From an uncultured Clostridia bacterium (GTDB lineage Bacteria; Bacillota; Clostridia; TANB77; CAG-465), in the NCBI GenBank assembly GCA_934149365.1, contig CAKPEI010000001.1, positions 12,723 to 76,722 of the forward strand: a stretch of DNA of 64,000 nt, in the 5' to 3' direction. Position numbers and translations under genes: made by a program. A model generated the notes under the pieces. That model was not told the origin of the DNA. It searched no databases and was given only the letters and a program-made list of their open reading frames with translations. This document shows, in pieces, positions 2,222 to 47,792 of the stretch; within the stretch, counting starts at the first letter, position 1; each line of letters opens with the position of its first letter.

Positions 2222-2302
<81 letters not shown>

Positions 2303-2375
2303 AAATGAGCTAGATAGAGGTTTCTGCGCTCAAAAAACAGATGTATTGGATAATAGAAAGTTAGTTATACAGTAA

Positions 2376-2400
2376 TGTATAGCTAGCTTTTTTGCGTGTT
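2376..2400 (+). promoter_or_regulatory. conserved palindrome/T-tract element TGTATAGCTAGCTTTTTTGCGTGTT between leader ORF and main gene
   Basis: Nearly identical at 4547-4570, 26109-26130 and 37676-37699. AGCTAGCT palindrome followed by T6. Confidence 0.5.
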
Positions 2401-2417: not shown

Positions 2418-4313
2418 ATGAAAACGAAGGTAAAATTAAAAAATGGAATATCACTAATAGTACTAGTGATAACAATAATAGTAATGATAGTATTAGCAGG
2501 AGCAGTGATACTAGCATTAAGCAATAGTGGAATAATAGAAAAAGCAACAAGCTCGGCATTTAAGACGGATGTAAAAACAATAAAAGAAGAATATGAATAC
2601 AAAATGGCAGAGCTAAAGCTAAATGATGAGACATTTGACCAAGCGACATTAAATGCTTCAGATACAACATTAAGTTATAATACAAAAACAGAAGAAGGTG
2701 GAAACCTATACAGTATAGTGCCGACAGCAGAAAAGTATAAAGATGAGTTTGAAGTAAGAGATGGAGTGCTAAGATACAAAGGAGAAAATTACAAAAAGTT
2801 AAATTGGGCAGAAGAAGTAGGAATAACAACAAATAGATATGAAATAGTAGATGGAGTATTATTATCATCAAACGCAAACTTGCTACTAGTGGGAACAGAT
2901 GGTAAGATAAGAATACCAAGTAATGTAGTAAAGATAGGAGAGGGAGCATTTAGTAATGTAGACGGATTAAAAGAAGTAACAATACCTGGCAATGTAAAAG
3001 AAATAGGACAAAACGCATTTTCAAGTAACAAAACATTAGAAAAAGTTGTAATGGAAGATGGTGTTAAAACAATAGGTAAGAGTGCTTTTAATCATTGTGT
3101 TTCACTTAAAAGTGTAACAATGACAGATAGTGTTACTGAACTTGGTAGTTTATCTTTTGACTTTTGTTTTAAGCTTGAAAATATTATATTATCAAATAAT
3201 ATAACTAAAATAACTACTAATTTTGGATATTGTTATGAATTAAAGGAACTAAAATTGCCTAAAAATATAACTGAAATAAAAAGTTCTTTTAAGTATGCAA
3301 ATATTAATAAATTAACAATACCAAAGAGCTTATCAAGCATAGTAGATTGTTTTAGTGAAGTAAATGAAATAACAATAGAAAGTGGCAATAACTATTTTGA
3401 GGTTGATGATGGAATACTTTACACTAAGGGAAAAGGAGAATTAATATATATCACTAAATCTAAAAGAGATGAAACTTCGATAACAATACCTGAAAAGGTT
3501 ATTACCTTGAATGCTAATGCATTTTCAAATAGTAAGTTTGAAGTAATAAACTTACCATCAACACTTACTGAAATAACAGGATATTTTAGTTCTAAAAATT
3601 TAAAAGAAATAAATATTTCAGATAGTAATACAATATATAAAAGTAGTAATGGTTCGCTATATAATAAAAATATGACAGAAACAATAGCAATAATATCAGA
3701 TGAAAAATTGGTTAATGTACCAAATGGTGTTACAACAATAGGTTCAAATTCGATGATATTATGTCAAAATGCTGAGAAAATAGTTTTTCCCGAGAGTGTA
3801 ACTACAATATTAGGAAATGCTGTTGCAGCTAGTACTACAGAAATTGAATTGGGGTCAAAAGTAAGCAACATAAAAGAGCTTCCGTTTGGCGCAAATAATA
3901 TTGTAGAAAAAGTTACTATAAATGCTGGTAATCAAACATATTCAGCAGATAATAACTATATATACAAATTAAATTCATCAAAACAAAAAGAAAAAATAGT
4001 TTATGCAATAACTAAAGAAAAGGAACTAACTGTGCCAGATGGAATTGATGAAATATGTGATTATGCCTTTCATAACAAACAAATTACCAAAGTTATTTTA
4101 CCTAATACATTGAAGAAAATAGGAATAGCTAGTTTTTCAGCATCTCTTTTAGAAAATATAGAAATACCAAGTAGTGTTGACACTATAGGAAGTGATGCAT
4201 TTGCTACTTCTACGTTAAAAGAAATAAAAATAAATAAGAAAAAAGGAAGTATAAGTGGAGCGCCTTGGGGAGCTCCAATAGGGGAAAGAGCAATAACATG
4301 GACTCAAAATTAA
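2418..4313 (+). CDS. secreted/surface protein: non-canonical prepilin-like N-terminus plus BspA-type leucine-rich repeat domain (family A, copy 1)
   Basis: RBS GGAGG. N-terminus MKTKVKLKNG|ISLIVLVITIIVMIVLAGAVILALS. Repeated IP.NV..IG..AF......L..V motifs typical of BspA-like LRR. 631 aa. Confidence 0.8.
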   Translation: MKTKVKLKNGISLIVLVITIIVMIVLAGAVILALSNSGIIEKATSSAFKTDVKTIKEEYEYKMAELKLNDETFDQATLNASDTTLSYNTKTEEGGNLYSIVPTAEKYKDEFEVRDGVLRYKGENYKKLNWAEEVGITTNRYEIVDGVLLSSNANLLLVGTDGKIRIPSNVVKIGEGAFSNVDGLKEVTIPGNVKEIGQNAFSSNKTLEKVVMEDGVKTIGKSAFNHCVSLKSVTMTDSVTELGSLSFDFCFKLENIILSNNITKITTNFGYCYELKELKLPKNITEIKSSFKYANINKLTIPKSLSSIVDCFSEVNEITIESGNNYFEVDDGILYTKGKGELIYITKSKRDETSITIPEKVITLNANAFSNSKFEVINLPSTLTEITGYFSSKNLKEINISDSNTIYKSSNGSLYNKNMTETIAIISDEKLVNVPNGVTTIGSNSMILCQNAEKIVFPESVTTILGNAVAASTTEIELGSKVSNIKELPFGANNIVEKVTINAGNQTYSADNNYIYKLNSSKQKEKIVYAITKEKELTVPDGIDEICDYAFHNKQITKVILPNTLKKIGIASFSASLLENIEIPSSVDTIGSDAFATSTLKEIKINKKKGSISGAPWGAPIGERAITWTQN

Positions 4314-4352: not shown

Positions 4353-4390
4353 TAAATACATAAAAAAACATTACAAGAGGTGAAAATGAA

Positions 4391-4540
<150 letters not shown>

Positions 4541-4546
4541 AAAATA

Positions 4547-4570
4547 CATAGCTAGCTTTTTTGCGTGTTA
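4547..4570 (+). promoter_or_regulatory. conserved ATAGCTAGCTTTTTTGCGTGTTAA element (copy 2)
   Basis: See 2376-2400. Confidence 0.5.
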
Positions 4571-4583
4571 ATGGAGGAAAGTA

Positions 4584-6503
4584 ATGAAGGTAAAATTAAA
4601 AAAAGGAATATCACTAATAGTACTGGTGATAACAATAATAGTGATGATAGTATTAGCAGGAGCAGTGATACTAGCATTAAGTAATAGCGGAATAATAGAA
4701 AAGGCAACAAGTTCAGCATTTAAGACGGATGTAAAAACAATAAAAGAAGAATATGAATATAAAATGGCAGAGCTAAAGTTAAATAATGAAACATTTGACC
4801 AAACAACATTAAATGCGTCAGATACAATGCTAAGTTATAATACAAAAACAGAAGAAGGTGGAAACCTATACAGTATAGTGCCGACAGCAGAAAAGTATAA
4901 AGATGAGTTTGAAGTAAGAGATGGAGTACTAAGATATAAGGGAGAAAATTACAAAAAACTAAATTGGGCAGAAGAAGTAGGAATAACAACAAACAGGTAT
5001 GAAATAGTGGATGGAGTATTGTTATCATCAAACGCAAACTTACTACTAGTAGGAACAGACGGTAAGATAAGAATACCAAGTAATGTAGTAAAAATAGGAG
5101 AAGGAGCATTTAGTAATGTAGATGGATTAAAAGAAGTAACAATACCTGGTAATGTAAAAGAAATAGGGCAAAATGCATTTTCAAGTAACAAAACATTAGA
5201 AAAAGTTGTAATGGAAGAGGGTGTCACAACAATAGGATTAGGAGCTTTTTATAACTGTACTTTGTTGAAATCTGTAAGTATGACAGATAGTGTGGTTACA
5301 TTAAATGAACAATCATTTAATGGGTGTATCTCATTAAGTGATATAAAATTATCAAATAATATAACTGAAATACCGTATAATTTTTCTGGATGTTCTAGTT
5401 TAAATCAATTTAAATTACCGACTAGTGTTAAAAAAATATCAAATATATTATGGAATACTGCTGTAAAAGAAATTTATTTACCTAGTAGTTTGGAAACAAT
5501 AGGCGGAGGATGTTTTAGAGGGACTAGCCTTAGTAAGATAACAGTTGATAAAGATAATATTAATTTTGTGGTTGAGGATGGAATATTGTACGGTTCTGGT
5601 AAAACATCTATTATATATTTGACAGCAGATAAGAAAAAAGAAGAAAGTATTACAATTGCAGAAGGCGTAACAAAATTAGATGGAATAATTTTTGCAGAAA
5701 GTAGTATACAAAATATATCTTTACCGTCGACCTTGACAACAATAGAAAACTACTTTTCATCTGATAATATAAAAAGTATAACAGTAGCAGAAGGCAATAA
5801 GTATTTTGCTAGCAAGGATGGATCTTTGTATAACAAAGATATGACAAAAACAGTAGCAATAATATCAGACGAACAAAAAATTACTATACCAGAGGGAGTT
5901 ACCTCAATAGGTAGTTATTCACTATATTTATGTAAAAATGCTACTGAAGTAGTATTTCCTGAAAGTCTTAAGAGTATGGGGGCTTATTCAATAACACATG
6001 GTAATAAGTTAACTGCAGTAGAGAAAGTGTCTATTGGAGCTAGCGTTAATGATATAGCACATTTAGCTTTATATAATGGGTATAAGCTAAAAGAAGTTAA
6101 TATAAATTCTGCAAATAGAACATATAGTGCAGATGGCAATTTTTTATACAAATTAAATAGTAGTGGTGTTAAACAGGAAATAGTAGAGGCGATTGTTAAT
6201 GAATCAAATGTAACAATACCGGAGGGAATTAAAAAAATAGGAAAATATGCTTTTTATAACAATAAAATTGTAAACATAACATTACCTAGCACGTTAACTG
6301 AAATTAGTGATAGTGCATTTTCATCATGCTATTATTTAAATAATGTGCAAATACCAAGCGGTGTAGATACTATTGGTAGTAATGTTTTTTCAGCTTGTAG
6401 ATCTCTTAAGAGTGTAAAGATAAATAGGAAAAAAGGAAGTATAAGTGGATCTCCATGGGGAATACCAATAGGGGAAAGAGCAATAACATGGGCTGAAAAT
6501 TAA
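4584..6503 (+). CDS. secreted/surface protein: prepilin-like N-terminus plus BspA-type LRR domain (family A, copy 2; tandem paralog of 2418..4313)
   Basis: 639 aa. First ~210 codons nearly identical to copy 1. LRR region diverged. Last ~24 aa conserved (KKGSISG.PWG.PIGERAITW). Confidence 0.8.
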   Translation: MKVKLKKGISLIVLVITIIVMIVLAGAVILALSNSGIIEKATSSAFKTDVKTIKEEYEYKMAELKLNNETFDQTTLNASDTMLSYNTKTEEGGNLYSIVPTAEKYKDEFEVRDGVLRYKGENYKKLNWAEEVGITTNRYEIVDGVLLSSNANLLLVGTDGKIRIPSNVVKIGEGAFSNVDGLKEVTIPGNVKEIGQNAFSSNKTLEKVVMEEGVTTIGLGAFYNCTLLKSVSMTDSVVTLNEQSFNGCISLSDIKLSNNITEIPYNFSGCSSLNQFKLPTSVKKISNILWNTAVKEIYLPSSLETIGGGCFRGTSLSKITVDKDNINFVVEDGILYGSGKTSIIYLTADKKKEESITIAEGVTKLDGIIFAESSIQNISLPSTLTTIENYFSSDNIKSITVAEGNKYFASKDGSLYNKDMTKTVAIISDEQKITIPEGVTSIGSYSLYLCKNATEVVFPESLKSMGAYSITHGNKLTAVEKVSIGASVNDIAHLALYNGYKLKEVNINSANRTYSADGNFLYKLNSSGVKQEIVEAIVNESNVTIPEGIKKIGKYAFYNNKIVNITLPSTLTEISDSAFSSCYYLNNVQIPSGVDTIGSNVFSACRSLKSVKINRKKGSISGSPWGIPIGERAITWAEN

Positions 6504-6549: not shown

Positions 6550-6559
6550 ATTATAGTAA

Positions 6560-6719
6560 TTATTTATTACCATAGACAGTAGGTTACTTAAAATATTAAG
6601 TTAGAAATCCTACCGAGGTGAAAGTTAATATTGATAATAGTTCTTATGAATTGATATAGATATATACTATCACCTTGTGGTGATAGTATTTTTTATCTTA
6701 GAGGAGGTGCAAAAGCGAA
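6560..6719 (+). ncRNA. probable ribosomal protein L10 leader (autoregulatory 5' UTR)
   Basis: ~160-nt untranslated leader between the promoter and rplJ. Inferred from the known L10(L12) leader architecture, not from a structure check. Confidence 0.35.
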
Positions 6720-7229
6720 ATGCCAAGTGCAAAAGTTTTAGAAAAGAAACAAGCTCAAGTAAAAGAGATTGCTGAAAAGCTTTCAAAATCTAAGATGACT
6801 GTATTTACAGATTACAGAGGTATCACTGTTGAAGATGATATGAATCTTAGAAAAAAATTAAGAGAAGCTGGTTGTGAATGTGCAGTAATCAAGAACACTA
6901 TTTTAAAACTTGCTGCAAAAGAAGCAGGAATTGAAATAAATGAAGACACATTTGAGGGGCCAACATCAGTTATATTTAGTTATGATGACGTTGTAGCACC
7001 AGCTAAAGTTGCATATGAATATGCAAAAGACCATGAATTCTACAAATTTAAAGGTGGAGTTATGGAACAAAAAGAAGTGAGCAAGGAAGAAATGATGAAA
7101 CTTGCAAAACTACCTTCAAAGGAAACACTTCTTACTATGCTTGCATCTGCATTGCTTGGAAATATACGTAACCTAGCAGTTGTAGTAAATGAAGTAGCAA
7201 AGCAAAAAGAGGAAACAGCTAGTGCCTAA
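6720..7229 (+). CDS. rplJ: 50S ribosomal protein L10
   Basis: 169 aa. RBS GGAGGTG. Sequence characteristic of L10. Confidence 0.9.
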   Translation: MPSAKVLEKKQAQVKEIAEKLSKSKMTVFTDYRGITVEDDMNLRKKLREAGCECAVIKNTILKLAAKEAGIEINEDTFEGPTSVIFSYDDVVAPAKVAYEYAKDHEFYKFKGGVMEQKEVSKEEMMKLAKLPSKETLLTMLASALLGNIRNLAVVVNEVAKQKEETASA

Positions 7230-11244: not shown

Positions 11245-13491
11245 ATGTCAATAGTTAACATAAAAATATTGAAAGAAGGTGAAAAAATTAATAAAAAAGT
11301 TGTAACAATAGCTATATTAATATGTGTTTTAAATGTAATATATAAAATATATAGTTATTCATTTAAGTATAAATCAGATGAACAAAGTAAAATGTATGAA
11401 GTAATGGTTATAGAAAAACAAAAGCAGACTGATAATAAAGTAGTGTATTTATCAAAAATAGGAAAAGATAAGTTTTTACTTAATATATACTTTAAGAATA
11501 AGTATGGAGAAAATAATAACTTCACAGAAGAAGAAATTAAGCAAATACTTGCATATAATTATGGAGATCGTTTAAAAATTGAAGGAAAAATTACGATTTC
11601 AGAAGCTCTTGGTAATATTGGCGAGTTTGATTATAGAAAGTATTTAAATTCAAAAGGAATATATGGGACACTCGATGCGTATAAAGTTCAATATGTGGAA
11701 AACTATGCAGATAAATTAGGTAAAATTGTATATTTAGTGCGTGATAAAATATCAAATATATATACAAAAAACTTAGGTGAAAAACAAGCTGGTTTGCTTA
11801 AAGGAATGATATATGGTGATACTAGAAATTTAGATGATGAAATTAAAGAAGAATTTCAAAATATAGGAATAAGTCACATAACAGCAGTTTCTGGTTCTAA
11901 CTTAAACACTTTATTACTTATTATGGGAATAGTTATGTATAAATTTAATAAAAAGAGAATATATGTGATAATTCAAATAATTTGCATAGTTATGTTTTGT
12001 TTAATTTCAGGTTTAGAGCTTTCTGTTTTACGTGCTGGTATTATGACTACAATACTTATCATTGGAAAAATTAGAAATACAAAAATAAATATATTTAAAC
12101 TACTTTTAGTAACTTTTGCAATAATGATTTATATAAATCCATTTAGAATATTTAATGTTGGAATGATTATGTCCTTTTTATCTATAATTGGATTATCTTT
12201 GTTTAGTAAAAAGATATATAATTTTTTAGAAAGTAAAATTAAATGGAAAGTTAAAAACAAAAAGGTAGTTGGCATTCTTTGTAAAATAGCTAATGCAATT
12301 TCTATAACATTTGCTATAAATATAACCACACTTCCTATAACTATTTATTCATTTAACAGATTTTCTCTAATTAATGTTTTGTCTAATTTGTTAGTTTCAT
12401 TCTTATCTGATAGCATTTGTATATTAGGAATAATATCAGTTATATTAGTAAAAATTCCTTATCTATCAACAGGTATATTTTATACTTTGAATTTTCTAAT
12501 ATCTGCATTGATATATATTGCAAAATTTCTAGATAAAATCTCGTTTTTAATAAATCTTAAATCAATTCCGTTTTATATAATATTAATATATTATTTTTAC
12601 ATATTTGCTTTTTCTTTAAGCAAATATATTTTAACAAGTCATAAAAGGTTTGAAAGTGTGTATAAAAAGACAAGAAGAGGAATAGCTATATTGTTTATAT
12701 TTTGCATTTTATTTTGGCATATTAATATTATTTTCTTAGATAATTATGTGTATTTTTTTAATGTAGGACAAGGTGAAATGGCTTTAGTAAAAGAAAATAA
12801 CACATATGTAATGATTGATTGTGGTTCAATAACAAATGATACTTCGTATATATTTGATAGCTTTGCCAAAAAACAAAATATAAATAAAATAGATGTGATT
12901 ATACTTTCACATTTCCATAGTGATCATACAAATGGAATAGAAAAAATATTGGAGAAATATAAAGTTTCATATTGTATATACGCTTATCCTGCTAGTTTTG
13001 AAAATGAAGAATATATAAAAACTATGGAGGTTATTCAAAAGAATAATATTAAATGCATAGTTGTAAAAGAAAAGGACAATATAAAAATAAATAACATAGA
13101 TATAAGTGTTTTATCTCCTGGTCTTAGCTACGTTTATGGCAGAGATAATGATGAAAGTGAAAACATTAATTCTTTAGTTTTTAATTTAAATATTAGAAAA
13201 AAGAATTTTCTCTTTACAGGTGACAGCGTAGTAAGAAGTGAAACTAAAATACTTGAAAATATTAAGTACATGAGAATATCTAAATTTGATATTTTAAAAG
13301 TTGCACATCACGGTTCTAAAACTTCCACATCTGATAATTTTATTCAAAATATACTTCCTAAAGCTGCAATTATATCGTCTAAATACAAAGTATATAAACA
13401 CCCTAGTAAACAAACAATTAACATTCTAAATAGATATAATGTGATTACATATATAACAGAAAAGTGCGGTGGGATAAAATATATTATTTAA
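11245..13491 (+). CDS. comEC: DNA internalisation competence protein ComEC/Rec2 (competence domain plus metallo-beta-lactamase domain)
   Basis: 748 aa polytopic membrane protein. C-terminal HFHSDH MBL motif. Confidence 0.8.
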   Translation: MSIVNIKILKEGEKINKKVVTIAILICVLNVIYKIYSYSFKYKSDEQSKMYEVMVIEKQKQTDNKVVYLSKIGKDKFLLNIYFKNKYGENNNFTEEEIKQILAYNYGDRLKIEGKITISEALGNIGEFDYRKYLNSKGIYGTLDAYKVQYVENYADKLGKIVYLVRDKISNIYTKNLGEKQAGLLKGMIYGDTRNLDDEIKEEFQNIGISHITAVSGSNLNTLLLIMGIVMYKFNKKRIYVIIQIICIVMFCLISGLELSVLRAGIMTTILIIGKIRNTKINIFKLLLVTFAIMIYINPFRIFNVGMIMSFLSIIGLSLFSKKIYNFLESKIKWKVKNKKVVGILCKIANAISITFAINITTLPITIYSFNRFSLINVLSNLLVSFLSDSICILGIISVILVKIPYLSTGIFYTLNFLISALIYIAKFLDKISFLINLKSIPFYIILIYYFYIFAFSLSKYILTSHKRFESVYKKTRRGIAILFIFCILFWHINIIFLDNYVYFFNVGQGEMALVKENNTYVMIDCGSITNDTSYIFDSFAKKQNINKIDVIILSHFHSDHTNGIEKILEKYKVSYCIYAYPASFENEEYIKTMEVIQKNNIKCIVVKEKDNIKINNIDISVLSPGLSYVYGRDNDESENINSLVFNLNIRKKNFLFTGDSVVRSETKILENIKYMRISKFDILKVAHHGSKTSTSDNFIQNILPKAAIISSKYKVYKHPSKQTINILNRYNVITYITEKCGGIKYII

Positions 13492-25824: not shown

Positions 25825-25866
25825 TATTACAATAAAATTACAAATAAAAAAATAACACAAAAAGTG

Positions 25867-25895
25867 TTGAAAAAAGTTTTAATATAAAGTAGAAT
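25867..25895 (+). promoter_or_regulatory. promoter TTGAAA-17-TAGAAT for leader ORF / family B gene (copy 3)
   Basis: Identical hexamers and spacing at 37455-37483. Confidence 0.5.
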
Positions 25896-25946
25896 AAAAA
25901 CGTAGAAAATAAAAAGAAAGAAAAAGAAAAGTAAAGAGGTGAAAAT

Positions 25947-26027
25947 ATGTTAACTAAAGAGCATGCAAACAGTATAACTCTAGAGAGAGAGAGAGAGAGA
26001 GAGAGAGCATACAATTTAAAAATATAG
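25947..26027 (+). CDS. leader peptide ORF MLTKEHANSITL(ER)4AYNLKI containing the (GA)13 tract
   Basis: RBS AAAGAGGTGAAAA. ATG 25947. Stop TAG 26025-26027. Confidence 0.5.
   Translation: MLTKEHANSITLERERERERAYNLKI
25982..26007 (+). repeat. dinucleotide microsatellite (ag)13 inside the leader ORF
   Basis: 26-nt perfect tract. Confidence 0.95.
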
Positions 26028-26108
26028 CTACAAAAGTAGCTGCGTTTTGCGTGCAGAAAATAAAAGAGAATAGTAATGTAAAAGAAGTTAGTTAGACAGA
26101 GTAGAAAG

Positions 26109-26130
26109 TATAGCTAGCTTTTTTGCGTTT
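26109..26130 (+). promoter_or_regulatory. conserved GTATAGCTAGCTTTTTTGCGTTTAA element (copy 3)
   Basis: See 2376-2400. Confidence 0.5.
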
Positions 26131-26235
26131 AACTAGAAAGTAAAACAAAAATTAATTAAGGTATAATCATGATAGTAAATCATGTAAATATACAAAAAGT
26201 TTTGTTCAAAAGAAAAAAATAAAGGGGGAAAAAAT

Positions 26236-27432
26236 ATGAGAACAAAAGTTAAACTAAAAGGCGGAATATCATTAATAGTATTAGTAATAACAATAATAGT
26301 AATGATAATACTAGCCGCAGCAATAATATTATCGCTATCAAACAGTGGAATAATAGGAAAGGCAAATAAAGCAAAGACAGATACAGACATATCAAATGCA
26401 AAAGACTTAGTGGCTATGGCTCATGCAGACTGGATGCTAGATGAGGCAAAGATAAAAGAGAACGATGATACAATAACATCATTTAGTAACTATGCAGAAA
26501 AGAAATTACAAGAAGCAGGATATAAAGTAGGAGCAGGAGAAGGAGCATATACAGTAACAGAAGATGGAGAAGTATATACAGGTCTAACAGAAACAGCAAG
26601 AGCAGGAATAACAGCAGGAATAAAAATAGGAGATGAAGTAAAGTATAATGCAGTACTAACAGCAAAAAGAACTACAACAGACGGAAGTGAACAAAGTTCA
26701 ACAGGAGCAGCAGATATTACGAAGAAACAAACAGTAAAAACAAATACAAGCTATACATGGAAATATATAGGATTAGGAGAAGATGGAAGTTTACTTATAG
26801 CGCCAGATATGACAGGGACAATAGGAGCAGACTATAAATTAATATTAGGATATAAAGGAGGTTATATAAATGGACCAAAAATGTTAAATACAATATGTGA
26901 TATTTTATATACAGTAGAGGGAAAAGGAAAAGCTCAAAGTATGAATATAGACATAGTAAACAAAATATTAGAATATAATGGACCAAAAGGAAGATACTAT
27001 GATGCAAGTAGTAATACAGTAGAAACAACAGAAGCAATGACAATAGCAGAATTGGAAACAAAATTTAATAGTAAATTAGCAAGAGATTATGTGCCAGAGG
27101 GGAAAGATTTAGGAGAATATAAATCAGACTATTATTACATAAACAAAACATACCATGCAAGCAGAATAACCAAAGATACAGTGAAACAAAATCTAGTATA
27201 TCAAGCAAATACATATTGGCTTGCTTCTCCGTGTGTCGATGCGAATTTGGACATCGGTTATGCGAGTTTCCATGTACGCTGCGTTAACTCTACTAGCGTG
27301 GACGCGACCAACATGTTCAATCCGTATGTCTCCGATAGTAGCTTTCCCTGCGCTGTCCGTCCGTATGTTTCTCTAACATCTAATGTCCAGAAAACAACAG
27401 AAAATGGAAAAACAGTATGGACATTAAGCTAG
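26236..27432 (+). CDS. secreted/surface protein: prepilin-like N-terminus plus C-terminal YWLASPCV domain with candidate variable region (family B, copy 1)
   Basis: RBS AAGGGGG. N-terminus MRTKVKLKGG|ISLIVLVITIIVMIILAAAIILSLS. 398 aa. Confidence 0.8.
   Translation: MRTKVKLKGGISLIVLVITIIVMIILAAAIILSLSNSGIIGKANKAKTDTDISNAKDLVAMAHADWMLDEAKIKENDDTITSFSNYAEKKLQEAGYKVGAGEGAYTVTEDGEVYTGLTETARAGITAGIKIGDEVKYNAVLTAKRTTTDGSEQSSTGAADITKKQTVKTNTSYTWKYIGLGEDGSLLIAPDMTGTIGADYKLILGYKGGYINGPKMLNTICDILYTVEGKGKAQSMNIDIVNKILEYNGPKGRYYDASSNTVETTEAMTIAELETKFNSKLARDYVPEGKDLGEYKSDYYYINKTYHASRITKDTVKQNLVYQANTYWLASPCVDANLDIGYASFHVRCVNSTSVDATNMFNPYVSDSSFPCAVRPYVSLTSNVQKTTENGKTVWTLS
27239..27372 (+). other. candidate DGR-type variable region (GC-rich, NNC-codon-rich 3' segment)
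   Basis: Composition shift (gcg, ccg, cgc, gac, gtc codons) in an otherwise AT-rich gene. Differences from paralogs fall at first/second codon positions. Confidence 0.45.
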
Positions 27433-27915: not shown

Positions 27916-30132
27916 GTGATAAAGAAAATGTTTAAGGGTATATTTAAAAGAAGAAAGGTTGCATATGTAGGGCTCATGCTTGGCGCGTTTTGTGTGTTTG
28001 GTAAGTGTTATGCTGCAAGTTATGCGACTTCAACGATTTCAGATAGCTTCCCAGCAAGTTATCAATCATATATAAATAGATTAAAAAGTAGTCATCCTAA
28101 TTGGAATATTAAGGCTTTTTATACACATTTAGATTGGAATACAGTTCTTAATTCGGAGTCAAAAGGAACATATTCAAGAGTTCAAAATTCGGCATATGGT
28201 GATGCATGGAAAAGAACAGAAGCAGCAAATGATAGTTCATATAATGCAGCAGGTTTTGTACTTGCTTCAAGAGCTGCAGTAGCATATACATTGGACCCAA
28301 GGAACTTCTTAACAGATGAAGGAATATTTCAATTTAGGGTAATAGATAAAGATGTGGCTTCGGATACAGAAACTGCTGTAAAAGAAGTTGCACATAGTAC
28401 ACCAATGTACACAAATGATTATGCTAGTATTATAAAGAAAGTGGGAAATGATAAGAATATAGCTCCAACTTTTATAATATCAAGAATAAGACAAGAAACA
28501 GGTTGTGATACTGTAAATAACGGAAGTATAAATGGTAAAAACTCTAAATATCCTGGTTATTATAACTTCTTTAATATTGGAGCAAGAGATGGAAATGGAG
28601 CTGTACAAGCTGGTATAAATTTAGCACATACTAATGGATGGAATACACCAGAAAAAGCTATTGCAGGTGGAATGGACTGGCTAAACAAAAACTATGTTAA
28701 ATGGGGACAAAGTACAGTATATTTCCAAAAGTTTGATGTAGCAAACCCATATGGTAATGCAACAACGCTTCTTTCTATGCAGTATATGTCTAATATATCT
28801 GCACCAATGGGAGAGGCCAAAATTGCATATAAAGGAATTGAGAGGGCAGGTATATTAAATAACACATACACTTTCTATATTCCAATATATGATAATATGC
28901 CATCAATAGCTTCACCTAGTCCAACTATAGGGTACTATGAAAATGATAGCACAATGGTATATCTAGATGACCCAGATACAAATGATAGCTACGATACTTT
29001 TAAAATAAGGTCAACAGCGGACTCTTCTAGTTCTAGTAATGTAGTGTATACATTAAAAGAGTCTAGTGATATAAATAAAAAGACAGCAATGACAAGAATA
29101 AAAAAAGGCATTGATACTGGTTGGGACTATGTTGAGTTTGAAGTAAATGGTCAAAAGATAGAAGGCTATGTATGGAACTATTATGTATTTGAATATTCAT
29201 ATACTAAAGTAACAGCAATATCTTTAGATAGTGCAAACAAAACATTAAAAGTAGGCGATACTTTTAAACTTTCAGCTACAATAGAACCTTCAAATGCTAA
29301 ATTTAAGGATGTAACATGGAGTAGTTCAAATAATAACGTGTTAACAGTAGACAGTAATGGTAATGTTAAAGGAGTTGCAGCAGGTTCAGCTATTGTAACT
29401 GCTACAACAAAAGACCAACAAAAAACAGCTACATGCACAGTAACAGTTACTGATAAAGACCCAAGTATATCTTTAGATAAAACTAAATACAGTGTAGTGA
29501 GTGGAAAGTTAACACCTTTTAGTGTTGATATAGAATATACTGACGTGTCAGATTATGATGTGAAAATAGAGGATGAAAATATTGCTAAAATTCAAGATGG
29601 AAAAATATTAGGAGTTAAAGAAGGAACAACTAAATTAATTGTTACTTTAAAAGGAACTAATATAAAGGCAGAAGCAGAGATTAATGTAATTGAGATAAAA
29701 GAGGGAGATATAGTAATTGATAGTTCTTTAGATGTGAATAATGATGTTGTATCAAATATATCACCTGAAACAAAAGCACAAGATATAATTGGAAAAGTTC
29801 AATCTTCATACACAGTAGCATTAAAAAATAAATCAGGAGAAACATTAACAGGAGATGCTTGTGTTGGAACGGGAAGTAAAATTCAGATTTTAGATAATGC
29901 AGGTACGGTTATATATGAGTACACAGTTTTAATATATGGAGATGTAACTGGTGATGGTAAAATAACTTCAAAGGACTATATGGCAATTAAAAATCATATA
30001 ATGGGAACGGCTACAATTACAGGAATAGAAGCAAAAGCAGCAGACAGTTTTAGAGATAATAATATAACTTCAAAAGACTATATGATTATTAAAAATCATA
30101 TAATGGGAACATCTGTGATTAGTCAGAAATAA
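27916..30132 (+). CDS. secreted multidomain protein: GH73-like glucosaminidase (putative peptidoglycan hydrolase) domain, Big_2 Ig-like domains, C-terminal type I dockerin
   Basis: Signal peptide. RQETGCD...YNFFNIGA (GH73-like). Big_2 (VTWSSSNNNVLTVDSNGNVKGVAAGSAIVTATT). Dockerin repeats GDVTGDGKITSKDYMAIKNHIMG twice. 738 aa. Confidence 0.7.
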   Translation: MIKKMFKGIFKRRKVAYVGLMLGAFCVFGKCYAASYATSTISDSFPASYQSYINRLKSSHPNWNIKAFYTHLDWNTVLNSESKGTYSRVQNSAYGDAWKRTEAANDSSYNAAGFVLASRAAVAYTLDPRNFLTDEGIFQFRVIDKDVASDTETAVKEVAHSTPMYTNDYASIIKKVGNDKNIAPTFIISRIRQETGCDTVNNGSINGKNSKYPGYYNFFNIGARDGNGAVQAGINLAHTNGWNTPEKAIAGGMDWLNKNYVKWGQSTVYFQKFDVANPYGNATTLLSMQYMSNISAPMGEAKIAYKGIERAGILNNTYTFYIPIYDNMPSIASPSPTIGYYENDSTMVYLDDPDTNDSYDTFKIRSTADSSSSSNVVYTLKESSDINKKTAMTRIKKGIDTGWDYVEFEVNGQKIEGYVWNYYVFEYSYTKVTAISLDSANKTLKVGDTFKLSATIEPSNAKFKDVTWSSSNNNVLTVDSNGNVKGVAAGSAIVTATTKDQQKTATCTVTVTDKDPSISLDKTKYSVVSGKLTPFSVDIEYTDVSDYDVKIEDENIAKIQDGKILGVKEGTTKLIVTLKGTNIKAEAEINVIEIKEGDIVIDSSLDVNNDVVSNISPETKAQDIIGKVQSSYTVALKNKSGETLTGDACVGTGSKIQILDNAGTVIYEYTVLIYGDVTGDGKITSKDYMAIKNHIMGTATITGIEAKAADSFRDNNITSKDYMIIKNHIMGTSVISQK

Positions 30133-37523: not shown

Positions 37524-37595
<72 letters not shown>

Positions 37596-37675
37596 TATCT
37601 AGAAATAAACTAGATAGAGGTTTTTACGCGCAAAAGACATATTATTAGATAATATAAAGTTAGTTATACAGTAAA

Positions 37676-37699
37676 TGTATAGCTAGCTTTTTTGCATTT
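37676..37699 (+). promoter_or_regulatory. conserved TGTATAGCTAGCTTTTTTGCATTTAA element (copy 4)
   Basis: See 2376-2400. Confidence 0.5.
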
Positions 37700-37772
37700 A
37701 AAGCAAGGTATAATCATTGCATTAAGCAATGTTAATATACAAATTAAGTTTTATATGAAATGGGAGGTAAAA

Positions 37773-38942
37773 ATGATGAAAAACTTAAGAAAAAACAAAA
37801 GCGGAATATCACTGATAGTATTAGTAATAACAATAATAGTAATGATAATACTAGCAGCCGCAATAATACTATCACTATCAAATAGTGGAATAATATCAAA
37901 AGCAAACAAAGCCAAAACAGATAGTGATACAGCAAATTTAAAAGAGTATGTAAATACACTAAGAGCAGAATGGGAGTTAATGACAGCAGAAAAACAGGCA
38001 GAAGAAGGTTCATTTGTAGATTATGCAAATTCAAAGTTAGCTGAGAAAGGTTATAAAGTAATGCTATCAGATGACGGAGTACTAATGAATGAAGCAGCGA
38101 CAGCTGCAGTAAAAGCAGGAATAAAAGTAGGAGATACAGTAACAGGGTATACATTGGATGTGGCTACATATACAACAGACGGAAGTGAGAATACATGTGA
38201 TGCAAAAAAACAAGAAGAAACAGATCCACAACCACAAGAAGTAACAGCAAATACGCAGCTAAGATGGAAATACTTAGGAGTAAATGCAAATGGAGAACTA
38301 GAAATAATGGCAGATTTAGGAACAACAGAAGTTGCAGCAAATACAAAAGTAACATTAGGCGGAAAAGGTGGTTATTTAAAAGGACCAGATATGTTAAATA
38401 CAATATGTGAAAAATTATATTCAAAAGATGGAGTAGGAACAGCAAGAAATATGAATATAGATGATGTAAATAATATATTGGGTTATATAGGAGAAAAGGG
38501 ATCATATTACTATATTGATGACGAGTACACACCAACTAAAGAAGCAAAAACAATAGCTACGTTAGAAAGCGAATTAGGAATGACATTAGATGGTAGAACA
38601 ACACCAGATGGAAAAGACTTAGGAATGTACTATTTAGATTATTACAATATAAGTAGAACAGATGATGTAAAAAAGATGAAAAAACCAGGGAATGTGGATT
38701 TAGTATACAATGCTAAAAATGAATACTGGCTTGCTTCTCCGTGTGTCTCTGCAATGTTCTTCGGCAACATGGCGACTTTCAGTGTTCGCTATGTTAACTC
38801 TGCTGCTGTGGGCGGGAACGGCGTGTTTAGTTCGTATGACTACTTTGCCGGCCATACTTATGCGGTCCGCCCTGTAGTAACTTTAAATTCTAATGTTAAA
38901 TTAACACCAAATGCAGATAAAACAGAGTGGGGAATAAGTTAG
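37773..38942 (+). CDS. secreted/surface protein: prepilin-like N-terminus plus YWLASPCV C-terminal domain with candidate variable region (family B, copy 2)
   Basis: ATG 37773 after RBS GGGAGG. The ORF-track start 37692 runs through the RBS. N-terminus MMKNLRKNKSG|ISLIVLVITIIVMIILAAAIILSLS. Confidence 0.8.
   Translation: MMKNLRKNKSGISLIVLVITIIVMIILAAAIILSLSNSGIISKANKAKTDSDTANLKEYVNTLRAEWELMTAEKQAEEGSFVDYANSKLAEKGYKVMLSDDGVLMNEAATAAVKAGIKVGDTVTGYTLDVATYTTDGSENTCDAKKQEETDPQPQEVTANTQLRWKYLGVNANGELEIMADLGTTEVAANTKVTLGGKGGYLKGPDMLNTICEKLYSKDGVGTARNMNIDDVNNILGYIGEKGSYYYIDDEYTPTKEAKTIATLESELGMTLDGRTTPDGKDLGMYYLDYYNISRTDDVKKMKKPGNVDLVYNAKNEYWLASPCVSAMFFGNMATFSVRYVNSAAVGGNGVFSSYDYFAGHTYAVRPVVTLNSNVKLTPNADKTEWGIS
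38748..38880 (+). other. candidate DGR-type variable region
   Basis: 16 of ~41 codons are NNC. GC-rich patch. Confidence 0.45.
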
Positions 38943-46019: not shown

Positions 46020-47792
46020 ATGGAAAATATCAAACATACAGACAAAAGTTCTAAAATTTTTGCTGTAGTTTTATCAGTAGCCGTAGTACTAGTAGCAGCG
46101 ATTGTGCTAGGTATTATAGGAATGAACAGCTTAAATGGTAAAGTTGAAACTACTGAACAGCACGCATTAAAATCAGTAGCAAACGATGAAGAAAATGTGA
46201 AAACTTTAGGTAGCATTCAAAAAGAAATTGACGTTGTTAAAACAGAAGTAAATGAGGTTAAAGCTAAAGCTGATGAAAATATATTATCATCAGAAGAAAA
46301 CCTAACTGAAATAAACAATGTTAAAGAAAAAATAGTTAGTATCAAAAATGATATAAATAGTGTAGTAGCAAAAGAAGCAACTGTAAAAGAAAAAGCAGAT
46401 GAACTTCTAGATACATTAAATAAAATGGAAGAAAAATTATATGCTACAATAGAAACACTAAAAACTGAAGCAAAAGCATATATAGATACTACAAAAAATG
46501 AAATAAATACAAATACAGATACAAAAGTATTGGCTGCACAAACTGCTATAAATACAAATGTAGATGAAAAATACGTTTTATTAAATACTAGAATAGCAGA
46601 TGCAGAAGCTGCAATAAACGCAAATACAGATGCAAAAATATCAGCAGCGCAAACAGCAATAAACGCAAATACAGATGCAAAAGTATCAGCAGCGCAAACA
46701 GCAATAAATGGAAATACTGATGCAAAAATATCAGCAGCGCAAACAGCAATAAATGCAAACACAGATGCAAAAGTATCAGCAGCCCAAACTGCAATAAATG
46801 GAAATACAGACGCAAAAATATCAGCAGCGCAAACAGCAATAAATGGAAATACAGATGCAAAAGTATCAGCAGCCCAAACTGCAATAAATGGAAATACTGA
46901 TGCAAAAATATCAGCAGCGCAAACTGCAATAAATGGAAATACTGATGCAAAAGTATCAGCAGCACAAACAGCAATAAATGCAAATACTGATGCAAAAGTA
47001 TCAGCAGCCCAAACTGCAATAAATGGAAATACTGATGCAAAAATATCAGCAGCACAAACAGCAATAAACGGAAACACTGATGCTAAATTAGCTGCAAGCT
47101 TTACAGATTTAAAAACTGATTTAAATACTGAATTTTCAAAAATATCAGATAGATTTGATGATGTGGACACTGCTTTATTTAATTTAAAATCTGACGTAAC
47201 TTCATTGCTAACAGCTAATACAACTGTAGGAACTAAATTAACTTCTATAGAAACAAAAGTTACTTCAATAGAAGGAAGTGTCTTAGGTATAAACACAACA
47301 CTTGCTGGAATAAATACGAGCATAACAGGAGTTAATACAACACTTACTGGAATAAATACAAATATAACAGGAGTTAATACATCCCTTATTGGTATTACAA
47401 GTAGTTTAACCGGTGTAACTACTACACTTACTGGAGTAGATGGTAAGTTAGATACAGCTAATTCAAACGTATCAGCAATAAACACAACAGTAACAGGTAT
47501 AAACAGTAATGTATCAATAGCTTTAACAGAAATTTCTGAATTAAAAAATAAAGTTGCAAATATAGGAAGTGGAATGACTGGTATAAGCTCAAAAATTGGA
47601 ACAGCTGCAGATACTAGTGCTAGCACAACATTATTTGGAAAAATGGCAGGTATAGTAAATGATGTATCTGGAATAAATGCTAAACTATCTACAATGGATG
47701 GTAAATTAGATAGCATAATGACTAATACTAACTGGCTTGGAACTTTAACAGATGCTCAAATAAACAAATTAAAAACAATATTGAATAGTTAA
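46020..47792 (+). CDS. membrane-anchored repetitive coiled-coil protein with ~14 tandem 13-aa repeats (SAAQTAINGNTDAKI/V) and a second T-G-I/V-N-T-S/T repeat region
   Basis: RBS GGAGG. N-terminal transmembrane segment. 39-nt periodic DNA from ~46600 to ~47100. Confidence 0.75.
   Translation: MENIKHTDKSSKIFAVVLSVAVVLVAAIVLGIIGMNSLNGKVETTEQHALKSVANDEENVKTLGSIQKEIDVVKTEVNEVKAKADENILSSEENLTEINNVKEKIVSIKNDINSVVAKEATVKEKADELLDTLNKMEEKLYATIETLKTEAKAYIDTTKNEINTNTDTKVLAAQTAINTNVDEKYVLLNTRIADAEAAINANTDAKISAAQTAINANTDAKVSAAQTAINGNTDAKISAAQTAINANTDAKVSAAQTAINGNTDAKISAAQTAINGNTDAKVSAAQTAINGNTDAKISAAQTAINGNTDAKVSAAQTAINANTDAKVSAAQTAINGNTDAKISAAQTAINGNTDAKLAASFTDLKTDLNTEFSKISDRFDDVDTALFNLKSDVTSLLTANTTVGTKLTSIETKVTSIEGSVLGINTTLAGINTSITGVNTTLTGINTNITGVNTSLIGITSSLTGVTTTLTGVDGKLDTANSNVSAINTTVTGINSNVSIALTEISELKNKVANIGSGMTGISSKIGTAADTSASTTLFGKMAGIVNDVSGINAKLSTMDGKLDSIMTNTNWLGTLTDAQINKLKTILNS
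46600..47100 (+). repeat. 39-bp tandem coding repeat array (~13 units)
   Basis: gcaaatacagatgcaaaa(a/g)tatcagcagc(g/c)caaac(a/t)gcaataaa(c/t)g units read directly. Confidence 0.85.

Follow-up and report, generated by a model that had tools for sequence, protein, structure and literature searches.

In a 64,000-nucleotide (nt) stretch from an uncultured Clostridia bacterium (positions 12,723 to 76,722 of contig CAKPEI010000001.1; hereafter the window), four genes predicted to encode surface proteins are each preceded by a leader module, named M1 to M4 in the order of their position. Judging from the sequence, each module is likely to be a self-contained stochastic ON/OFF switch that operates by slipped-strand phase variation via ribosome-dependent anti-termination. 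The modules share the same order of parts (Table 1), namely a promoter-like site, an ATG-initiated leader open reading frame (ORF) that follows an AGAGGTG-type ribosome-binding site (RBS) and contains a perfect dinucleotide tract, a putative intrinsic terminator and the surface-protein gene. The analysis followed up the element at positions 2376-2400 (TGTATAGCTAGCTTTTTTGCGTGTT), which a first-pass annotation had described as a conserved palindrome with a T-tract and as a possible attenuator, terminator-like RNA element or operator.

On the + strand this element comprises the 3' arm of the M1 terminator stem (GTATAGCTAGC), the U-tract at 2388-2393 and a GCGTGTT tail. A search with GTATAGCTAGCTTTTTTGC allowing up to 3 mismatches returned four matches in the window, all of them on the + strand (2377, 4546, 26108 and 37677; the M2 copy at 4546, which starts with ACATAGC, carries two mismatches), where 0.07 matches were expected and none of 100 dinucleotide-preserving shuffles attained four. 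The motif is hence present in all four leader modules as originally claimed, each copy with a short leader ORF on its 5' side and a surface-protein gene on its 3' side. The distance to the start codon, given as 15-100 nt, proved roughly right, the T-tract ending 24, 21, 111 and 79 nt before the ATG of the main gene in M1 (2418), M2 (4584), M3 (26236) and M4 (37773), respectively. The sequence GCGCTCAAAAAAC, reported about 40 nt upstream at the first two loci, was also recovered there (2326-2338 and 4494-4506, about 38 nt 5' of the element). The pairing of its A6 with the T6 was not confirmed, as the full-leader fold leaves the A6 without a partner and the A6 is conserved neither in M3 and M4, where the equivalents diverge (GCGTGCAGAAAAT and ACGCGCAAAAGAC), nor in related modules from other assemblies. 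The first Us of the U-tract pair with the AAAG or AGAAG immediately 5' of the stem.

The first-pass annotation had missed the 5' partner arm of the hairpin, AAAGTTAGTTATAC (2357-2370), which pairs with GTATAGCTAGCTTT via two conserved G·U pairs to form a hairpin of 14-17 base pairs (bp) followed by U6. Due to these two G·U pairs the hairpin is invisible as a palindrome in the DNA, and the AGCTAGCT palindrome formerly regarded as the functional unit is incidental to the longer stem. The four hairpins of the window, each with its U6, have folding energies of -16.5 to -20.2 kcal/mol (z -2.8 to -4.9). In the comparison of strands the sense folds reached -10.7 to -18 kcal/mol versus -1.4 to -8.6 kcal/mol for the antisense folds, and since the latter are worse by 8-12 kcal/mol the structure appears to be confined to the RNA of the + strand. 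This bears directly on the earlier proposal that a shared regulator uses the inverted repeat containing AGCTAGCT as its DNA operator. Such an operator would explain the near-invariance at four places and the exact 8-bp palindrome; yet the symmetry depends on two G·U pairs for which the opposite strand has C·A mismatches, the apical stem changes its sequence but keeps its pairing as is typical of RNA structure, and the U6 always follows the stem. Taking furthermore into account the weak antisense folds, we consider an operator highly improbable.

The conservation of the hairpin was analysed in 14 modules from at least four lineages, comprising the four window modules, six relatives retrieved via a DNA pattern from the related metagenome-assembled genome (MAG) E03__bin236 and from two metagenome contigs, and four divergent modules that were located independently through the leader peptide. 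A MAFFT alignment of the hairpins mis-registered the apical stem and was replaced by a base-anchored pair table, according to which 11-14 core pairs are retained in all 14 modules. The lower five pairs of the stem are invariant, and positions 6-14 vary yet stay paired through double compensatory changes, the variants including UAUAC/GUAUA, UAUGUA/UACAUA, UUAUAUC/GAUAUAG, GUAUAUCU/AGAUAUAU and GUGCACU/AGUGUAU. Despite the imperfect alignment RNAalifold predicted 16 pairs, three of them with compensatory changes, and a consensus terminator scan calls the M4 copy. Because of the folding of hairpin and U6, the strand specificity, the compensatory changes and the call in M4, it is very probable that the hairpin and its U6 constitute an intrinsic terminator. 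The original suggestion of an attenuator or terminator-like RNA element was therefore well founded, the motif being one half of a strand-specific stem-loop with U6. The leaders had no match in Rfam at gathering thresholds, and none at E <= 1 was obtained within 25850-26260.

A second feature absent from the first-pass annotation is the long dinucleotide tract in every leader ORF together with its link to the frame geometry. Tracts of at least six units occur in the 64-kb window only in the four leaders, and no GCAGA array was detected in it. A separate ORF holds the tracts, about 125-230 nt 5' of the main ATGs. This differs from the placement of intragenic simple sequence repeats (SSRs) as in opa or in the BspA type of Candidatus Mycoplasma girerdii, the repeat here lying outside the regulated coding sequence. 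They do not occupy a promoter spacer either, being situated about 70-85 nt 3' of the -10 hexamer and past the leader ATG.

When one or two repeat units were added or removed in simulations, exactly one frame in three carried the leader ORF to the hairpin, with the exception of M4. This long frame stops in the hairpin loop in M1 and M2 and within the 5' arm in M3, and the long-frame stop falls between +6 and +24, counted from where the 5' arm begins, in 13 of the 14 modules, M4 (-13) being the exception. The M1 long-frame stop directly abuts the flagged element, in agreement with the earlier remark that a third-frame leader ORF ends there. In some of the relatives the long frame ends in the 3' arm (with KLVIQSKMYS as the last residues), and in others it crosses the U-tract (last residues CIASFFAFN, where IASFFAF is encoded by ATAGCTAGCTTTTTTGC). 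The two short frames stop 46-70 nt 5' of the stem. Shuffled sequence of similarly AT-rich composition provided an open frame across the distance in 12-35% of the trials per module.

With its present 16 units the M1 leader stops at the TAG at 2300-2302 after 26 amino acids (aa), and with 14 or 17 simulated units it would reach the stop at 2373 (49 or 51 aa); the other short frame ends at a TAA (2293-2295) just 5' of hairpin A, a second hairpin described below. The M2 leader is in the long frame, and gene callers report a matching ORF of 49 or 47 aa in other assemblies. M3 with 13 units stops at 26025-26027 and M4 with 15 units at a TAA (37593-37595). The predicted state of the window is thus M2 ON and M1, M3 and M4 OFF. 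In M2 and its ortholog L023 two ATGs lie 5 nt apart (4386-4393 in the window); the upstream one at 4386 opens a 13-aa ORF that terminates short of the repeat, and it could be a competitor of the leader start at 4391.

According to the proposed mechanism, slipped-strand mispairing at replication would add or remove 2-nt units and thereby shift the leader ORF among three frames. In two of these the ribosome would stop shortly past the repeat, so that the hairpin forms and transcription terminates at the U-tract (OFF). In the third frame the ribosome would enter the 5' arm, come to a halt in either the loop or the 3' arm and block the hairpin, allowing read-through into the gene (ON). Hairpin A may pause the polymerase and let the ribosome catch up. 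In folds of the full-length leaders the terminator was kept and no competing antiterminator helix involving its 5' arm was predicted, so that the ribosome itself would have to serve as the antiterminator. Since only one frame in three is long, the default state would be OFF.

Read in the frame of the leader ATG, the tract specifies (Thr-His)n, which could point to an amino acid-sensing leader attenuator of the his/thr type in which ribosomes stall in the Thr-His run during starvation. We regard this as extremely unlikely, considering that the tract is a perfect dinucleotide repeat in the DNA with no synonymous codon variation, that a sister type encodes (Glu-Arg)n, that the folds predicted no alternative antiterminator hairpin, that the repeat number varies between strains, and that the downstream genes encode adhesin-like surface proteins instead of biosynthetic enzymes.

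It could likewise be argued that the switch is real and that the OFF state arises mainly from Rho-dependent polarity or from decay of the mRNA once the ribosome has been released early, with the hairpin in a secondary role. The short frames would expose about 70-90 nt of untranslated RNA, and (AC)n, being C-rich and free of G, resembles a Rho loading (rut) site. The architecture is however unchanged in modules with (AG)n tracts, which contain no C, the hairpin with its U6 is the most conserved element of the module, and the long-frame stop is placed precisely on this hairpin. A leading part for Rho or mRNA decay therefore seems quite unlikely.

Variation in repeat number was found among close relatives. 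The M1 and M2 proteins are present with 100% identity in other human-gut assemblies, including those from the Hadza, in which the M2 tract has 16, 13 or 15 units, 13 and 16 corresponding to the long frame and 15 to a short one. Clusters of proteins at 90% identity contain leaders with identical flanks whose repeats differ by multiples of 3 (10, 13 and 16 units for the M2 type), the repeats of further leaders that agree in their flanks are 3 units apart, and two short-frame products in such clusters match the predicted OFF peptides. Contig L015 is cut within AC tracts at both ends, and in L018 and L019 an AC tract is located within 25 nt of an end. Three independent modules do not possess an intact repeat, which is interrupted in L001, reduced to three units in L004 and deleted in L023. 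Each of them is fixed in the long frame, its stop lying in the hairpin loop, which is what one would expect were the long frame the one that allows expression, and in the genes 3' of them the sequenced 5' portion is open and the N-terminal module of the family is retained. In the window as well as in the relatives, the module is always located immediately 5' of a paralog of the same surface gene family. A genome scan with the exact hairpin pattern identified one other species only, five of its ten matches being attributable to chance; in a metagenome scan two of seven matches were real.

Several observations weigh against a phase-variable switch of this kind. The M1 tract has 16 units in seven of seven complete copies, so that switching cannot be extremely fast. 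A profile search with the long-frame peptides returned 168 protein clusters at E <= 0.01 (ORFs of 40-90 aa), which, like modules L028-L031, were found via the long ORF and are unusable for ON/OFF ratios. The stem has an AU-rich composition, its G-C pairs numbering 3 and its G·U pairs 2, and a simple terminator scan misses the M1 and M2 copies. The longest frame of M4 stops 13 nt short of the core stem, and the switch in M4 is therefore probably weakened. In L001 and L029-L031 an additional promoter-like sequence, TTGCAA-17-TGnGAAATAAT, is situated between module and gene, so that in these relatives the switch may merely modulate expression. The long frame of the leader shows no excess at the third codon position (42/46/44), which leaves the conserved RBS, the ATG and the open frame as the sole evolutionary signs of translation. 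Furthermore, termination and its dependence on translation are steps that we infer from the sequence, as are leader translation, ribosome-dependent read-through and slippage within a population.

Alternatively, the hairpin might be a constitutive, partly leaky terminator or attenuator, or one responsive to another signal, with tract and frame being irrelevant. This explanation agrees with the solid evidence for hairpin and U-tract and with the invariant M1 tract; moreover, a near-identical hairpin occurs on its own in the related MAG (L005), where no leader module is present upstream, and may also serve as an ordinary terminator. It does not account for the association of tract and terminator in four of four window modules and in all relatives, for the long-frame stop being held inside the hairpin over divergent sequences, or for the long-frame fixation of every repeat-less copy. 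We therefore think a constitutive element unlikely and favour the frame-dependent switch.

Selection on the leader peptide at the protein level was considered and rejected on the basis of the flat codon positions, from which it follows that the sequence of the peptide seems irrelevant and that the open frame alone matters. The leader peptide itself is probably non-functional. Two types can be distinguished among the leader-peptide clusters, (AC)n giving rise to (Thr-His)n and (AG)n to (Glu-Arg)n. The number of dipeptide repeats ranges from 0 to about 6, and the clusters carry recognisable motifs such as SRNxLD and FCxQK.

The existence of at least 168 such clusters with motifs could also be taken to mean that leader ORF and terminator form an independent gene for a small protein or small RNA and that the surface genes possess promoters of their own, as might be suggested by the promoter-like sequence between module and gene in some relatives. 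The flat codon positions and the invariable location of the module directly 5' of a paralog of the same family contradict this assumption. In addition, only 21-24 nt containing the RBS separate terminator and gene in M1 and M2, and a scan detected no promoter-like site between terminator and gene in any of the four window modules. A separate small gene is accordingly very unlikely. The site designated P1, of the sigma-70 type, has kept its geometry with altered sequence across all modules. As a candidate for an internal promoter in M3 and M4, GGTATAAT resembles a -10 box; it was rejected, having no consistent -35 and no match in the scan and being part of a covarying hairpin.

Table 1. Coordinates of the features of the four leader modules and of the genes that they precede (positions in the window).
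Module	Feature	Position	Strand	Remarks
M1	promoter-like site P1	2157..2185	+	TTGACT-17-TAAGAT
M1	leader ORF	2222..2375	+	ATG to long-frame stop TAA 2373-2375; RBS AAGAGGTGA at 2206-2214
M1	putative (AC)16 slippage tract	2258..2289	+	
M1	hairpin A	2297..2315	+	ATCTAG-N7-CTAGAT just 3' of the repeat; 5' arm contains TAG 2300-2302
M1	putative intrinsic terminator	2355..2393	+	stem of 17 bp, counting the A·U pairs formed with the U-tract; GUAA loop and U6; about -18 to -20 kcal/mol
M1	main gene	2418..4313	+	631 aa, BspA-type leucine-rich repeat (LRR) surface protein, hydrophobic pilin-like N-terminus
M2	promoter-like site P1	4325..4353	+	TTGACT-17-TAAGAT
M2	leader ORF	4391..4540	+	currently long frame, 49 aa, TAA 4538-4540 in hairpin loop; predicted ON
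M2	(AC)16 tract	4427..4458	+	10, 13, 15 or 16 units in other samples
M2	hairpin A	4465-4483		contains short-frame TAG stop
M2	putative intrinsic terminator	4523..4562	+	apical stem UAUGUA/UACAUA, compensatory changes versus M1
M2	main gene	4584..6503	+	639 aa, BspA-type LRR surface protein
M3	promoter-like site P1	25867..25895	+	TTGAAA-17-TAGAAT, 10/12; sole + strand promoter-like site 5' of the gene
M3	leader ORF	25947..26095	+	ATG to long-frame TAG 26093-26095 within 5' arm
M3	(AG)13 tract	25982..26007	+	
M3	hairpin A	26025-26042		contains short-frame TAG stop
M3	putative intrinsic terminator	26081..26124	+	one G·A mismatch; stem perfect in ortholog L022
M3	main gene	26236..27432	+	398 aa, common N-terminal module, no Pfam domain
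M4	promoter-like site P1	37455..37483	+	TTGAAA-17-TAGAAT
M4	leader ORF	37524..37648	+	longest frame ends at TAG 37646-37648
M4	(AC)15 tract	37560..37589	+	
M4	hairpin A	37597-37615		contains short-frame TAG stop
M4	putative intrinsic terminator	37656..37693	+	called terminator-like by consensus scan, 15 pairs
M4	main gene	37773..38942	+	389 aa, common N-terminal module

Hairpin A has a different sequence at the equal position in the (AG)n type (TAGCTAC-AAAA-GTAGCTG). It is followed by a U-rich run and GC resembling the tail of the main terminator, and its M3 copy was flagged as terminator-like. Hairpin A could be a site of pausing or the remnant of a terminator duplication.

A further hairpin, B, lies 10-35 nt 3' of the terminator (GGTATAA-CATGAT-loop-ATCATG-TAAATATAC) at 26160-26193 in M3 and at about 37707-37739 in M4, and was also detected in L001, L007, L010, L022 and L028-L031. 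It shows compensatory changes in M4 (CATTGC/GCAATG), L028 (CACAAT/ATTGTG) and L030 (CATAGT/ACTATG), lacks a U-run on its 3' side and does not occur in M1 or M2. Hairpin B might be an element of RNA stability or processing. The family thereby displays three architectures, with the cassette directly against the RBS, with the cassette and hairpin B, or with the cassette, hairpin B and a second promoter.

The decision on terminator hairpin formation by a ribosome following closely behind the RNA polymerase is well known from the trp and his attenuators and from the pyrBI leader of Escherichia coli, the latter functioning with no antiterminator RNA. These systems sense the supply of nucleotides or of charged tRNA and are reversible, whereas the input in the leaders described here would be a heritable repeat frameshift, and no antiterminator of the 2:3 type is predicted. 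In the opa genes of Neisseria, CTCTT repeats in the region encoding the signal peptide cause a translational frameshift in the gene itself, with neither a leader ORF nor a terminator being involved. The likeness to opa consists in several paralogous surface genes, each with a repeat switch of its own, and in the combinatorial expression that would result. The cwpV gene of Clostridioides difficile reportedly encodes a phase-variable surface protein whose expression is decided by terminator formation in the 5' leader, depending on a recombinase-driven site-specific DNA inversion. It resembles the present case as a phase-variable surface protein in Clostridia and differs from it in that repeat slippage and leader translation are proposed here.

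The closest counterpart are the pil1 and pil3 loci of Streptococcus gallolyticus, in which GCAGA repeats in a leader ORF were shown genetically to set how long the leader peptide is (Danne 2014, PMC3894217). A stop within or after the hairpin there results in a ribosome that prevents hairpin formation and in high expression, a stop at least 28 nt upstream results in termination and low expression, and the repeat number varies between isolates (PMC3894217). Common to both systems are an SSR in the leader ORF with a unit that is not a multiple of 3, the subsequent stem-loop terminator and surface-structure gene, the frame-dependent length of the leader and the differing repeat numbers between otherwise identical variants. 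The systems share no sequence homology, and the pentanucleotide GCAGA of pil1 is replaced by AC or AG dinucleotides. One of three frames is long here, with OFF as the predicted default, whereas out-of-frame changes give ON in pil1. The pil loci are sortase-pilus operons, whereas the cassette described here precedes a large number of paralogous single genes, four of them within 64 kb, belongs to an uncultured gut Clostridia host, contains extra conserved hairpins and is known from sequence alone. The relation to pil1 and pil3 thus appears to be one of mechanism and not of descent.

The repeat type and the target proteins are shared with Candidatus Mycoplasma girerdii, in whose BspA-like family (CA)n variants have been observed in metagenomes (Costello et al. 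2017, PMC5476646). The effect of the variants was deduced by translating the repeat-affiliated ORF, the worked example being a frameshift that truncates the BspA-like protein itself (PMC5476646). The targets in both cases are BspA-type LRR surface proteins of a large paralogous family and the repeat is CA or AC; unlike in Ca. M. girerdii, the repeat here belongs to an upstream ORF of its own, with a predicted action via the terminator. Literature searches for a closer precedent yielded only S. gallolyticus (Danne 2014) and the intragenic (CA)n of Ca. M. girerdii, and in the searchable literature the pili of S. gallolyticus were the one experimentally worked-out case of a repeat in a leader gating a terminator. 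This kind of mechanism is already known; the dinucleotide repeats, the predicted one-in-three default-OFF logic and the copying of the cassette in front of many paralogs distinguish the present case.

The occurrence of the same logic in unrelated sequence suggests a recurrent solution, and the cassette is spread over an adhesin-like surface family of an uncultured gut bacterium present in Hadza and other human metagenomes. In our estimation the chances are evenly balanced that a portable cassette of promoter, repeat-containing leader ORF, pause-like hairpin and terminator has been spread in front of many paralogs, that the resulting independent default-OFF switches provide an opa-like combinatorial surface variation at the level of transcription termination, that they represent the first dinucleotide-driven system of this sort, and that the pil1-type mechanism is general and has evolved independently in Firmicutes commensals. 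If the proposed switch is true, the repeat count modulo 3 would be an ON/OFF predictor for each gene that can be read from the sequence and applied to metagenomic reads, so that the switching of surface antigens could be tracked in vivo in a commensal that has not been cultivated. Products of 40-60 aa annotated in this family as 'hypothetical proteins' would then have to be regarded as regulatory leaders.

The main genes of M1 and M2 match the BspA-type LRR domain PF13306 (E 1e-66 and 7e-78), and those of M3 and M4 resemble them in the N-terminal module only. This hydrophobic module, (K/R)-G-I-S-L-I-V-L-V-I-T-I-I-V, is common to all four products. As the pilin models of Pfam and NCBIfam did not match the N-terminus, the designation 'pilin-like' is a reading of the sequence only. 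An exact look-up of the M3 protein returned no record. In the related contig L031 a T2SS-F/PilC-type gene (PF00482, positions 1-941) is located 5' of two paralogs of the surface family, a neighbourhood hinting that the family may comprise substrates of a type IV pilus-like system.

A fifth paralog at 53616-54901 of the window has a promoter-like sequence of its own (TTGCAA-17-TGaAATAAT) and neither tract, leader nor hairpin. Its ATG at 53698 is off by 1 nt from the frame of the conserved N-terminal module, with the ORF resuming at 53765. This copy would thus be a pseudogene or another frameshift switch, unless the shift stems from an assembly error.

Directly 3' of the M2 main gene, a ribosomal protein L10 leader (RF00557, 60.4 bits) was detected at 6552-6704 before rplJ (6720-7229). 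A 45-nt tandem repeat with 10.6 copies and 91% matches extends over 46611-47087 inside the ORF 46020-47792, which probably encodes a repetitive surface protein. Domains of the Big_2 and dockerin type I families are encoded in the ORF 27916-30132 and suggest that this Clostridia genome provides a context of cellulosome-like or cell-surface scaffolds.

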